A stretch of 64,000 bases of DNA from Haliotis cracherodii (Eukaryota), in NCBI RefSeq assembly GCF_022045235.1, contig NW_027266271.1, positions 31,186,001-31,250,000 on the forward strand, given 5' to 3'. The notes under the pieces are model-generated. The model searched no databases. It saw only the letters and a program-made list of their open reading frames with translations, and was not told where the DNA came from. Position numbers and translations under genes: made by a program. Of this stretch, positions 471 to 63,242 are shown piece after piece (the first letter of the stretch is position 1; every line of letters starts with the position of its first letter).

Positions 471-492
471 TGGAAGGATTATCGTGCAGAGT
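471..492 (-). CDS. Gene A exon 19, 22-nt micro-exon (TLHDNPS)
   Basis: ttgcag acceptor, A|GTAAGT donor; same size and phase as paralogous micro-exon 62456-62477. Confidence 0.75.
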
Positions 493-730
493 CTGCAATG
501 AATAGAAATACTCAATGACGTACATGTAACCCGCTACACCTTTCAAATACGCCACGAGAAACACAAGCAAATATATGTTTTGCACAGGCTTTGTATAGTT
601 CCTTGTTAGACGGAGTATATATCCGTATCCTCGCATCCAATATAGGGGGTAGGGGGAAGCAACACACGATAGTATCTCTAAAGTGTTGTTTCCCAATATG
701 GTGCCACTATGGCGGCACTGTTGCGCCACT

Positions 731-1238
731 GTTAAACGCCGTACTCAGCAATATTCCAGCTTTATGACGGCGGTCTGAAAAATAATCGAGTCTGGACCAG
801 ACAATCCAGTGATTGTCATCATGAGCATCGATCCACGCAATTGATCGATCGATCGATCCACATGCATCAACCAAGTCACCGTGCCTGACCACCCGATCCC
901 GTTAGTCGCCTCTTACGACAGAGATTCAGTAAACAATTAAGTAAACAATAAAGTGAATTATTCCCAATGATATATGATAGAAAAGTATGGAATACCGGCC
1001 GGCCATTTACATATAAGGATCATATACATGAACTTGTACATAACTTTTGTTATATAAATATAATATCATATTTGGGAATTTAATAAATTCAAAACGTCAA
1101 TGCCATAAAATTATCAGTCTCGAATATCTGCGAAAGAGATCCTAAAGGGCGAAGAAGGCAAAAGAAAATAAGCATAGTCGCCTTTTATGGCAAGCATGGG
1201 TTGCTGAAGACCTATTCTATCCCGGATCTTCACAGGTC
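731..1238 (-). mobile_element. Family 1 short retroelement split by an insertion of about 250 bp
   Basis: 5' part at 1170-1238 and 3' part at 731-920. Confidence 0.75.
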
Positions 1239-1817
1239 AGTCGCGTTACTAATCAGCTACTCCGAGCCAACTTTCGCGGCATTTTGTAGCCATTTTCGTA
1301 GTATTATCAATCCTTTTGCGAGCCACATTAGCGATACTTTTCCGGCACTATCGCTGACGTTTGGTGAAAGCATTTCGCGACACAGGAAAAGGAACTTTTG
1401 AATTGTGTATGAAAGGTTACAATATTATGGATTTTAGCTCTTCACTCTCAAATGAGAACATATGCACGAAACGTTGAATAAGTGTCAGTATATTAGGCAA
1501 TTTAAGAAGGTCTGGTCTCTTTCACAAACACGAAGTTAAATATGAAACATTGTAATCAGTTAACTGAATAGAGGTCATATCGGCGTGTTATTCAATTCTA
1601 ACAATAAGGAAATCATGTACGAAATATCAAAATGTGTCTATACTTTATTCCATTCTAGAGGAGATATGTCAAAGTTGTATAACCTGCCTGTATTAATAAA
1701 TTTAAGTACAATATCTACAACGCCTCACTCATGTCACATATGTACATGCAATGTGGGTCACATGGCCTTGCAAGCTAATAATCTTGACATGACCTAAACA
1801 ATGTACCTACCTCAAGA

Positions 1818-1982
1818 GACCAGTGAAGATCTTCAGTGAAGAAGGTGACTATGGTTGTCGTAAGAGGCGACTAACGGGAACGGGAGGTCAGGCTCGCTGA
1901 CTTGGTTGATGCACGTCATCGTTAGACCGCCGTCATATAACTTGAATATTGCTGAGTGCGGTGTTAAAAAACAAACAAACAA
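1818..1982 (+). mobile_element. Family 1 short retroelement inserted at the exon 18 splice donor
   Basis: 13-bp TSD acctacctcaaga at 1805-1817 and 1983-1995; absent from gene B. Confidence 0.9.
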
Positions 1983-1988
1983 ACCTAC

Positions 1989-2135
1989 CTCAAGATGCTG
2001 TTGTACGGTCTTGTTTCCCATGGTTACGTTAGTCAAGTCATCAAGGTTCAACCTTTTGAGGAAGTTTGAATCCAAAGACGTGTCTCCTTGCGATAACCAC
2101 ATCGCCATCGCTTGATAGACGAACAGATACTGCTC
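1989..2135 (-). CDS. Gene A exon 18, end of D1 and linker (EQYLFVYQAMAMWLSQGDTSL...QQHLE)
   Basis: EQYxFxY and GDT motifs; 147 nt; near-identical paralogous exon at 62658-62804. Confidence 0.93.
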
Positions 2136-2429
2136 CTGTAAGTATGATAGAGTGACATGGTTTACAAAATCAGCAGCAGCAACGCATGTTTTCGTCACCC
2201 TTGATTCAATTATATGAATTCTCCTGTGGAGACTGGTTTAGGACAGGCACACAACACTCTACTGGTTGTCTCAATAGGCCACTTGGAAGGTTGGTCGGGC
2301 TTGTCGACCTCGTTGTCTGCATGTCTTAACCCGGACAGCGTGGGACATTTGCCTGACCCAGACTCGACTATGTACAGGCTGCCGCATTAAACAAGATTCC
2401 CTCACTCACCACTCTGAAGATCCACCTAC

Positions 2430-2565
2430 CTTTGTCTGGATCATGTTCTTCCTCTGTCCCCTCATGTTGGAGACGACGCTGACAACGTCAACCATGCCCT
2501 CTGTCTTGGCCTGCTCCATGAGACGGTCGATAGCGATGTAGGTCCCTGTACGGCCTATACCGGCA
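2430..2565 (-). CDS. Gene A exon 17, PTP D1 signature completion (SAGIGRTGTYIAIDRL...MRGQRKNMIQTK)
   Basis: Intact CX5R motif and Q-loop; 136 nt, phase 2-0. Confidence 0.95.
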
Positions 2566-2817
2566 CTGGAGTTGTTTTGAAAACAGGAAGATGTTGAGTG
2601 GGTGAGTGAGTAAAATGTAACGTCACATCGGCAATATTTCAGCCATATCATGACGAAACATTTATAATAATTATATTGAGATTGAATAAAAAGCTGTCAA
2701 CGATGGACAGTATAATAACTGGAGTATCACAGTTTCGATTTTAAAACTTGTTTAGGATAGTTAAAAGAATACATTATCATTCAACAATACAATATAAAAG
2801 TGGACTAGATCACCAGC

Positions 2818-3450
2818 AACTAAAGTTAGGCCACCATACTGGGGACCGTGGGGACTGACGGTACTTCTGCTTCCTGCACGGTTCCTCAGCAGGATTTACA
2901 CCATCCCTTTAGCTGTGGCCATGATATGGATTTTAGCCATCAATTAAATTAACAAAGATACTACGTTTAAAACTGTGGCATGAAAAAAGGTACTTTGAAT
3001 GATGTGGTCGTACATATCCTCTGAGGGGGGCAATAACTTTACTCTGCTTTAACCCCTTTGAGGATACAGCCACTAACCATCTAAGTTACAAATAATTAAA
3101 TGAGGACTTATTCTATTAAAAAGATCCTTGATAGATGATGATTTGAAATAAGTATTCCTTGTGATGGAAAAATCAACACAAACAAGCAGGACATGCTTGA
3201 CCGTGATTCTTTCATCACAAGGGATACAAAATGGAGGATCCTCACCTTTCAACAAATACTCATGGGTGTAACGAGAATGGCCATTAGGACATCGTCGTAA
3301 TATGACATCTTCAAATCGTGACTGACAACAAGAAGTAGGTGTAACCAATGTTTGTGTTTAATGTCATGTAATTTATTGATACCTACTTGGGTGCCCCACT
3401 TCTTTTGCATCAGATCTCGGATATATGATCCAATAACGGACTTGTAAAGA
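2818..3450 (-). mobile_element. 5'-truncated LINE 3' end (RNase H-bearing clade C-terminus with CCHC-like motif)
   Basis: GHSRYTHEYLL...PPFCIPC...TVKHVLLVC; absent from the matching intron of gene B. Confidence 0.75.
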
Positions 3451-60971: not shown

Positions 60972-61152
60972 CTGAAAAAACAGGAGATTAGGCTGCAAGC
61001 TGCCATGGGATTCCACTGAACACGAACGCAGAAAACATGAGTCGTTTATTATTTGACATAGTTCTTGCTCGTTTTGTCATATTGTGTTAAATTGATGTTA
61101 AATTTGTATGCATGCACCCTATGAAATTGGACGCATGGGCTTTTGTACTTAC

Positions 61153-61187
61153 AGGCACTGTTGCGATGGAGTTCCGCTCACTGTCCA
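61153..61187 (-). CDS. Gene B 35-nt exon (MDSERNSIATVP), degenerate D2 start
   Basis: tctag acceptor, CT|GTAAGT donor; phase 1-0 fits its neighbours. Confidence 0.7.
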
Positions 61188-62029
61188 CTAGATAACACAT
61201 AAGTCAAAGTGCATTCATCAGATACACTGAAGACCCGATTATAGAAGTAATGTTTGTGACAAACTAGTTTCGCATCTTTTGAACTGATTACTTATTTTAG
61301 AGGACAGACATGTCCCATTCACGAGTTACATTGTACTGCATTTCATATGACACATGCCTATGTAACGATTCAGCGATCAATGTTTTGCGATATTCAATGG
61401 GATCGTTGAGTGAGGTCATCTCAAGAGAGTTTCTGTCACGTGAGCAAACGTAACAATGTAGGCCGGCGCGTAGGAATACTTGTAGAGAGAAACATATGTC
61501 CGTCTTCTTCAAACCATTGATCAAACTGATCTAATCGTTCAGAGTGTATCATCAGCAGGAAGGGACTGAACAGATAAGAAAGTTGGAAGAACACGGAGAA
61601 GGTAAGATAACTGCCAAATACACAATGTCAATACTTGATGTCTTTAATAAGGTCAAATGGTCTCTTTAAACCAGTCTTGGCGATGCTGACCTTTGTCCAA
61701 GTTGCCTTGAACTTTGGCTAGTTTCTATTCATTTAGCAGGGTACGAATGATTCATTCGATTATTTCGCTGACAACTACTAAACAAAAAGTGTTTGTATAA
61801 AGGCTTGTGTTATGTGATATGCGTCTGCATTGTTTCGTCCCAAAGTGAGGTCGATCTTTGCAGCACCTACTGACAGCAGTATTTCATGCTGGTGCTGCCA
61901 TATATACTCAAATTATTTTCTCGTTTAATATTGATGGATAATAAATAAGTCAAAAACAGCATGCAACTAATTGAGGTCACATCAACATCTCATCGATTAT
62001 CTTCATAACTGTGGGACAATACATTGAAG

Positions 62030-62270
62030 ACACCCTCAGACCCCTCAACACCAGACCCAAAGAACATCAGACCTCTGCCAACAAACTAATCCTGAAATCC
62101 GCTATTTCCGAATACAACCTCAACAGCCAAGGCCATAACATCATGCGGGAAGCCACCAAAGTCCTGTCTACCGTGAAAAACCGCTGACGACAAATTTAAC
62201 TACAAGAAGCGATTAAATCAGGATACACCAGCCATCCATGAACCGTGACCAGGGAACCTATTTTTATTGC
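62030..62270 (+). mobile_element. Penelope-like GIY-YIG endonuclease C-terminal fragment
   Basis: KSAISE...GHNI...TKVL...QEAI...MNRDQG. Confidence 0.55.
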
Positions 62271-62455
62271 TTTGACCATTGTCGGCGCTAATTATCTAGT
62301 TGGCTTCAATTTGTCCATTGTCATTTCCATTCTATTACCCATCAGTGCTAATTACCCCCAAGGCCTTCCGTTTGCGTTGTGTTCCTCATAATAAAGAAGT
62401 TGACATCCATAAATAATATTCCTTATATATACATGCAATATTCTATTCTACTTAC

Positions 62456-62477
62456 TGGGTGGGCGAGCTTGTAGCGC
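62456..62477 (-). CDS. Gene B 22-nt micro-exon (ALQARPP)
   Basis: tgtag acceptor, A|GTAAGT donor; phase 0-1. Confidence 0.75.
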
Positions 62478-62657
62478 CTACAACAAATTCAAATTTCAAA
62501 TGACGCATGATAATTGACAATAGTATGGATTGCAATCTAGTCACTCTTAAACGAGTTGTTGATGTTTGCACGAAACGTCGCACAGGTGTCAGTAAATTAA
62601 TCCATTTTAAGAATTTTCATCTATTTTGCAAAACCACAACGTTACATATGTACCTAC

Positions 62658-62804
62658 CTCAAGATGCTGTTGTACGGTCTTGTTTCCCATGGTTATGTTA
62701 GTCAAGTCATCAAGGTTCAACCTTTTGAGGAAGTTTGAATCCAAAGACGTGTCCCCCTGTGACGACCACATCGCCACCGCTTGGTAGATGAACAGATACT
62801 GCTC
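62658..62804 (-). CDS. Gene B exon EQYLFIYQAVAMWSSQGDT...QQHLE
   Basis: Paralogue of 1989-2135. Confidence 0.9.
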
Positions 62805-63106
62805 CTACAGATATCAGAGAGTGATAGGGTTAACAAAATCAGCAGCAGCAACGAATGATTTCCCAATCTTGATTCAATTTAATGACTTCTCTCCATGACG
62901 TTTGCCCCTGTGGAGAACTGGGTTAGAACAGGTGCACAACACTACTGGTTGTATGAGACGCGACTAAATTGGACTGATTGGCCCTCCCCGGACGGCGTGG
63001 GACATTGATCATAGAACACTGGTTTGCCTGGCCGAAACTCTATTATGAACAGGCTACTATGACAAGCTGTTTTATGGCTGCGGAATTACACGACAGATGC
63101 GCCTAC

Positions 63107-63242
63107 CTTTGTCTGGATCATGTTCGTCCTCTGTCTCCTCATGTTAGAGACGATGCTGACAACGTCAACCACGCCCTCCATCTTGGCCTGCTCCATCAGA
63201 TTGTCGACAGCTATGTAGGTCCCTGTACTGCCTATACCGGCA
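63107..63242 (-). CDS. Gene B D1 signature exon (SAGIGSTGTYIAVDNLMEQAKMEG...MIQTK)
   Basis: Paralogue of 2430-2565; CGT(Arg) to AGT(Ser) in the CX5R motif. Confidence 0.9.

Follow-up and report, generated by a model that had tools for sequence, protein, structure and literature searches.

What does a receptor do when it joins a fucose-type lectin to a tyrosine phosphatase, and do all copies in a tandem array of such receptors signal alike? We focused on 64,000 nucleotides of the Haliotis cracherodii genome (contig NW_027266271.1; G000:C8:31186001-31250000; hereafter the window, with positions counted from its first letter), which hold most of one minus-strand gene (gene A) and part of a close paralogue (gene B). 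Both belong to a cluster on contig C8 of tandem single-pass receptors with F-type lectin, epidermal growth factor (EGF)-like and protein tyrosine phosphatase (PTP) domains. On balance we favor, by a modest measure, the view that these are glycan-sensing immune receptors with paired outputs.

Structure of gene A

Gene A was modeled by choosing exons from six-frame translations and joining them with a script. Its 25 exons give 3033 nt in a single open frame of 1010 amino acids, the sole stop being terminal; the window contains 19 of these exons, from 48497 to 471, and the remaining six lie to its left. They encode a signal peptide, an EGF-like repeat, the lectin domain (two exons) and three further EGF-like repeats, followed by a transmembrane (TM) exon and two juxtamembrane exons. 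Next come eight exons of the first PTP domain (D1), two micro-exons and five exons of a second (D2), most of which lies beyond the left edge of the window. Splice acceptors are uniformly AG. Donors are GT apart from that of the EGF1 exon, which is GC in gene A and in paralogues B-F. The features of gene A in the window are as follows.

48431..48497, minus strand: exon 1, signal peptide; the same exon is found in nine of nine C8 copies
44186..44332, minus strand: EGF-like repeat 1 (GC donor), assigned from the Cys pattern in the sequence; no Pfam match at E 0.01
25664..25891, minus strand: F-type lectin exon 1, with the cation motif AVDGD and the His and first Arg of the triad
24312..24518, minus strand: F-type lectin exon 2, with the second Arg of the triad and the terminal CEVE strand; no Pfam match when searched alone
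19926..20057, minus strand: EGF-like repeat 2; weak EGF_laminin match (E 0.0026, under the cut-off)
17741..17875, minus strand: EGF-like repeat 3a
12872..13006, minus strand: EGF-like repeat 3b, identical in peptide to 3a; a 162-nt contig from run X8 maps to this exon
11010..11930, minus strand: decayed EGF exons with stops or frameshifts; another lies near 16690-16800
8387..8477, minus strand: TM exon, hydropathy 2.9
7564..8299 (8299-8208 and 7832-7564), minus strand: juxtamembrane exons, with one YxN motif
1989..7430, minus strand: PTP D1, eight exons, catalytic motifs all intact
471..492, minus strand: D1-D2 linker micro-exon, 22 nt; the gene runs on left to G000:C8:31180876

Lectin exon 1 matched Pfam PF22633 at 42.6 bits (cut-off 27.8) and also PF00754 above its cut-off. 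Pfam detected D1 only, D2 being too degenerate. The AlphaFold model of a database protein, P0003 (mean pLDDT, the predicted local distance difference test score, 73.7; 29 sequences), matched tandem D1-D2 structures, including those of the classical receptor PTPs (RPTPs) PTPRE, PTPRA, LAR and CD45, over about 560 columns in Foldseek, so the C-terminus is a degenerate D2 that Pfam missed. A previous reading of the window made without database searches (the sequence-only reading) had given gene A a signal peptide, EGF repeats, an F-type lectin, a TM helix and an apparently active D1. The open frame, the Pfam and PDB matches and the intact motifs confirm this layout, and the Pfam search it proposed found the lectin exon and D1, with EGF_laminin under the cut-off; the reading had overlooked D2.

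A run of 167 N at 29964-30130, in the long intron before the lectin exon, may hide an exon. The last D2 exons of gene A recur as an inverted copy at G000:C8:31172910-31174824, about 6 kb beyond the gene A stop.

A cluster of nine genes with predicted-active and predicted-dead phosphatase domains

The cluster comprises nine genes (A-I), all on the minus strand and identical in exon order, a count that covers C8 31.146-31.55 and 31.85-32.01 Mb with the 300 kb between left out. The catalytic-loop exon of gene B lies 60,677 bases from that of gene A on the same strand, in agreement with the close paralogue about 60.7 kb away in the sequence-only reading. Gene B extends right to G000:C8:31310170, and its parts in the window are the following.

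63107..63242, minus strand: catalytic-loop exon, in which codon 63229-63227 encodes Ser in place of the invariant Arg
62658..62804, minus strand: last D1 exon, 94% to gene A
58041..62477, minus strand: micro-exons of the linker, then five D2 exons in a frame that stays open up to the stop

One D2 exon of gene B is duplicated in tandem (59084-59294 and 59373-59602, 83%), with the extra exon copy at 59372-59521. The P7-P8 intron of genes A and B is 65% identical overall, against at most 55% in 200 shuffles, and 78% identical over the 87 bases adjoining the P8 exon, while the flanking exons reach 90-94%. The intron sequence said earlier to be shared is thus real, though the likeness is weaker than was implied. 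Genes B and E are near-copies; gene E equals A over its first two exons and B over most D1 exons. Decay of EGF exons was found in genes A, G and I.

PTP catalysis requires the P-loop Arg and the WPD loop. D1 of gene A retains KNRF, WPD, HCSAGIGRTG and the Q-loop and, with a signal peptide, one TM helix and a cytoplasmic position, has the build of a classical receptor PTP. All D1 catalytic motifs (C-x5-R, WPD, Q-loop) are intact in A, C and F, three of the nine genes. The P-loop Arg is replaced by Ser in B, D and E, whose exons are open and whose splice sites are canonical, and by Gln in G and I, which also carry WLD for WPD and have intact TM-to-D1 exons. Five of nine genes have therefore lost the Arg through two separate changes, and in gene H three D1 exons are missing without a change of frame (264 nt). 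D1 is predicted to be catalytically dead in six of the nine copies. The proposal of the sequence-only reading that carbohydrate recognition is coupled to dephosphorylation would therefore fit only three of nine, most C8 copies, including its own paralogue B with the P-loop Ser, being predicted dead.

The set of 46 database D1 proteins contains the Gln/WLD type twice (P0001 and P0005), a Cys in the Arg position once (P0067) and WFD once (P0057); two other flagged proteins came down to a missing motif and a pattern miss, and the Ser type is absent from this set. P0067 and P0057 are distant family members from another Haliotis species, and their altered motifs suggest that loss of activity may have recurred.

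A selected lectin tip shared by divergent tails

F-type lectins account for all six PDB sequence matches of the domain, FBP32 being the best (E 5e-25, with paralogue F as query), and in the P0003 AlphaFold model the domain is beta-rich with pLDDT mostly 70-90. The His-Arg-Arg fucose triad is present in nine of nine C8 copies and aligns to the eel AAA and bass lectins. The cation motif (h2DGx) is likewise found in every copy, as AVDGD, AVDGN or AVDGS. The loop that follows the first triad Arg differs in length between copies. The lectin tip likely binds foreign fucose-type glycans.

The codon models were our own implementation. Pooled over A-F, the ratio of nonsynonymous to synonymous differences (pN/pS) was 1.22 for the lectin, 0.82 for EGF1, 0.32 for D1 and 0.41 for D2. 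Model M2a improved on M1a for the lectin (twice the log-likelihood difference, 2dlnL, 40.7), with about 21% of sites at a dN/dS (omega) of about 4.4; the lectin exons tested singly gave 27.7 and 11.3, and D1 gave 0.16. Nine of the 12 lectin sites with posterior >0.9 align to loops around the binding pocket, and one aligns to AAA Tyr46; the pocket loops are those of PMC5712786 (in its available part), tentatively placed on the abalone sites by alignment. For D1, omega was 0.30 across A-F and 0.26 between G and I; the Ser copies had 0.32, which differs from 1 at p 0.001. The lectin loops are under positive selection and D1 is under purifying selection, also in the copies predicted dead, which is the contrast that the sequence-only reading had put forward as a check.

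The tip is joined to tails of different kinds. Genes G and I are 88-96% identical to A-F in the lectin exons and 44-79% in the juxtamembrane and D1 exons, and the corresponding synonymous divergence (dS) is 0.02-0.10 in the lectin and 1.2-1.4 in D1. The DNA likeness spans the ectodomain introns and ends before the TM exon. In the D1 tree, G, I and P0001 form a separate clade (100/100), whereas in the lectin tree these three fall among A-F. The cluster thus holds near-identical ectodomains on divergent tails, an arrangement expected of paired receptors.

Tyrosine motifs were scored with the consensus patterns for Grb2 sites and for ITIM, the immunoreceptor tyrosine-based inhibitory motif. The G and I tails have three and four ITIM-like motifs (shuffle p 0.0004 and 0/20,000). 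The other tail types have YxN in all scored and at most one ITIM-like site each (17 of 18 database proteins, plus gene A). The tails differ in their motifs, with YxN beside a live D1 and ITIM-like sites beside a dead D1. The Gln/WLD type with ITIM-like motifs was also found in a second abalone species (P0001; D1 95% to G/I).

Occurrence beyond the cluster

Genome-wide, 130 candidates for the catalytic-loop exon yielded 117 matches. Of these, at least 40, on five contigs, form a lectin-PTP pair, having a lectin exon up to 50 kb upstream on the same strand and no PTP exon in the interval; on the opposite strand the count was 2. The figure of 40 is a minimum, since it draws on 150 scored lectin candidates out of 379. 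Both domains occur together in 41 of 83 retrieved database proteins, labeled with four Haliotis species, and the top Atlas clusters holding both are mostly molluscan. The closest database proteins are labeled Haliotis and named PTPRE/A/K-like, draper-like or MEGF10-like, much as had been foreseen for automated annotation. With nine C8 copies, at least 40 pairs genome-wide and positively selected lectin loops, the description of an expanded and fast-remodeling lectin-EGF-PTP family stands; its expansion is recent as regards the local copies, but the family itself is old.

Lectin exon matches number at least 150 genome-wide, and clusters of them lie on contigs C2, C3, C5, C67 and C80, where catalytic-loop matches are scarce or absent. 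The database retrievals also included proteins that have lectin and EGF domains but no PTP. More tandem arrays of near-identical PTP genes lie at C34:66.05-66.36 Mb (9 copies) and C1:17.68-17.75 Mb (4 copies), with no lectin exon paired by the 50-kb criterion given above.

Comparison with known receptor systems

Receptors of the same build are known from Biomphalaria snails (papers are cited here and below for their available parts). B. sudanica has 17 MEGF/GBD RPTP genes, three of them inside a schistosome-resistance region (PMC12297450). Like the abalone receptors, these SudRes1 proteins are single-pass and combine EGF repeats with a galactose-binding-like domain and a tandem pair of PTP domains, and they form tandem clusters (17 genes) with ectodomain diversity and EGF gain or loss; their domain is described only as IPR008979, unlike the F-type assignment made here (PMC12297450). 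Dead D1 copies, ITIM-like tails, ectodomain exchange and selection tests are not mentioned in the available text of PMC12297450. In B. glabrata, members of the LG5R 'scavenger class F-like' subgroup 1C combine a signal peptide with EGF-type repeats, a galactose-binding/fucolectin signature, a TM segment and two PTP-like domains, and glycan recognition has been proposed for them (PMC13712769). The abalone genes show every one of these features and the tandem clustering. PTP-less relatives (1B) adjoin the 1C genes, and LG5R has 4 genes against at least 40 lectin-PTP pairs in abalone (PMC13712769). The available main text of that paper contains ITIM or ITAM (the activating counterpart) 0 times and no catalytic-site or selection analysis.

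The architecture and the glycan-sensing hypothesis are thus already published for Biomphalaria, fucolectin signature included (PMC12297450; PMC13712769), and cannot count as new. The literature searched, which consisted mostly of papers outside subscription and was available in part, yielded no description of dead D1 copies, of tails with ITIM-like motifs, of shared ectodomains or of selection on the lectin loops. No Biomphalaria protein was among the database matches of the abalone queries, and the comparison with the snail genes is one of architecture.

Eel AAA (1k12), bass FBP32 (3cqo) and oyster bindin share with the abalone proteins a homologous domain, the cation motif, the triad and variable pocket loops (PMC5712786). 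Those lectins are soluble or acrosomal, whereas the abalone lectin sits on a receptor, and the word phosphatase occurs 0 times in the available text of PMC5712786; the abalone domain, unlike AAA, FBP32 and bindin, is without the motif Asp and the vicinal cysteines. Draper and MEGF10 resemble the abalone proteins as EGF-rich receptors with tyrosine motifs, and Draper-II binds Corkscrew via an ITIM (PMC8092387). Unlike Draper/MEGF10, the abalone proteins had no Pfam match to the EMI domain. Compared with PTPRE, PTPRA, LAR and CD45, they have a different ectodomain, a degenerate D2 and a D1 predicted dead in six of nine; the vertebrate R1-R8 ectodomains (Ig, FN3, MAM, carbonic anhydrase) had no Pfam match in P0002, P0003 or P0005.

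Vertebrate paired receptors such as Siglec-11/16, KIR and LILR carry shared ectodomains on different tails. The abalone genes differ in having no Ig domain and in setting a live PTP against a dead PTP with ITIM-like sites, not ITAM against ITIM. If they are paired receptors, they show that a design seen chiefly in vertebrate Ig receptors can also be built from a lectin and a phosphatase. Receptors of the same build sit under two mapped snail schistosome-resistance peaks, and the abalone cluster offers testable specifics: a fucose-triad pocket, selected loop sites, and live and dead catalytic sites on a shared tip. It also names candidate disease-resistance genes in farmed molluscs that are hidden by automatic PTPRE-like or draper-like names.

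Proposed mechanism and alternative explanations

Under the glycan-sensing interpretation, a shared, diversifying lectin tip would bind foreign fucose-type glycans and be joined to a predicted-active or predicted-dead phosphatase. In A, C and F, clustering by ligand would alter D1 output, and YxN sites may dock Grb2-type adaptors. G and I would be phosphorylated on their ITIM-like sites and recruit a SHP2/Corkscrew-type phosphatase instead of using their own, and B, D and E might compete for ligand or pair with active copies, tuning the signal. Through unequal crossing-over and conversion, tips and tails would go on being exchanged between copies. The snail clusters of the same build that map to schistosome resistance lend support (PMC12297450; PMC13712769). 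A bolder version, which we put forward tentatively and think more doubtful than not, is an Ig-free paired-receptor system in abalones. In it, one glycan-binding tip, shaped by positive selection and ectodomain exchange, would feed three outputs (an active phosphatase, a dead decoy, and a dead form whose ITIM tail recruits a cytosolic phosphatase), and the response to parasite glycans would be governed by each haplotype's live:dead ratio. Such a ratio rule, if true, could be tested at the snail schistosome-resistance loci.

Several observations weigh against the glycan-sensing interpretation. The full F-type motif, by published definition R-x-D-x4-R/K after the His (PMC5712786), is incomplete here: the motif Asp is absent, the Arg-Arg gap is 10 residues in A and 5 in F against 6, and the paired vicinal cysteines are missing. 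Whole-lectin omega above 1 was not significant (mean omega 0.93), and site tests of selection can be inflated by recombination and by alignment near indels. In approximately unbiased (AU) tests, a lectin tree following the tail types was not rejected (p 0.19 and 0.13), so that one swap and repeated conversion are indistinguishable; repeated ectodomain exchange was dropped as a claim, and the dS contrast alone is claimed. Predicted loss of D1 activity is local: the genome holds 97 matches to the P-loop motif pattern, which misses copies changed elsewhere within the motif, and 92 of them retain the Arg, the five exceptions being the C8 genes B, D, E, G and I. ITIM-like tails are inhibitory in known cases and the phosphatase possibly is too, so the outputs need not be opposite. 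Database models also end early, before the PTP for gene E (P0004) and before D2 for gene G (P0005), and no contig bridging lectin and PTP was among the matches listed; the runs are only presumed RNA (none is on record as such) and their matches are swamped by repeats, so this is evidence neither way. For that reason the link between the two domains is argued from the shared frame and matching phases, the conserved exon order and the database models. A 1466-nt contig of run X6 does cover the juxtamembrane exon and three consecutive D1 exons with the introns absent; at 86-95% likeness it comes from a relative.

The missing bridge and the early end of P0004 are what would be seen if the lectin/EGF exons and the PTP exons were separate genes. 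We consider this very improbable given the one open frame and matching phases of gene A, the same order in nine of nine C8 copies and in three C78 copies, the 41 of 83 retrieved proteins from four Haliotis species that hold both domains, and the same fusion in snails. It is also improbable, though less so, that the F-type fold was repurposed for protein binding in variable protein-sensing RPTPs. The lost Asp and cysteines and the length-variable loop fit this idea; the triad, however, is invariant in nine of nine copies while neighboring residues change fast, and vicinal cysteines are also lost in one fucose-binding domain of MsaFBP32 (PMC5712786). The ligands could instead lie on self or gamete surfaces, in allorecognition, fertilization or adhesion, and not on pathogens. 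Oyster bindin F-type domains diversify by positive selection near the pocket and by mid-domain-intron recombination (PMC5712786), and the abalone domain is likewise intron-split and loop-selected, but bindins are acrosomal and without a PTP tail (PMC5712786) and the same-build snail receptors map to parasite resistance (PMC12297450; PMC13712769), which makes this distinctly unlikely. Ordinary birth-and-death, in which only the Arg-bearing copies work and the rest are recent duplicates in decay that serve no separate function, is the strongest of these alternatives and still unlikely. It would account for the missing D1 exons of H, the decayed EGF exons of A, G and I, the truncated database models of E and G, the near-identity of B and E, and the lack of the Ser type in any of the 46 database D1 proteins. 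It fits poorly with the open frames and canonical splice sites of B, D, E and the G/I tails, with the omega of 0.32 and 0.26 in dead D1s (part of the low B/D/E value could predate the loss of Arg), and with the retention of the Gln/WLD type in two species on a tail diverged at dS >1.

Repeats and mobile elements in the window

Gene A contains a 3-kb tandem duplication (11781-14812 and 16651-19673, 93%), the source of the identical EGF-like repeats 3a and 3b. The gene also holds two satellite arrays.

18695..19975: 97-bp tandem array, 13.3 copies, intronic; the unit joins the 3' half of the EGF2 exon to that exon's donor
13923..14812: second 97-bp array, 9.2 copies, within the 3-kb tandem duplication

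The satellite follows the same EGF exon in C8 genes B, C, D, F, G, H and I as well, with 3 to at least 13 copies per array, and it may act as a seed for unequal crossing-over. That the arrays are extra coding exons was ruled out because the unit is not a multiple of three, runs into stops and has a donor with no clear acceptor.

Four long open reading frames resembling long interspersed nuclear elements (LINE-like) had no Pfam match. LINE-like fragments lie at 6265-7240, 27272-29916 and 37031-37730, with weak RVT_1 and Exo_endo_phos matches at 37031-37730 only, and the 6.2-7.2 kb piece was covered by contigs of all four runs compared. Broken copies of a Tc1-type transposase (Pfam HTH_Tnp_Tc3_2, DDE_3) occur in gene A introns at 15509-16520 and 10264-10689. 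A 24-bp tandem repeat of 12.5 copies (49368-49664) lies upstream of gene A, about 0.9 kb from its start codon.

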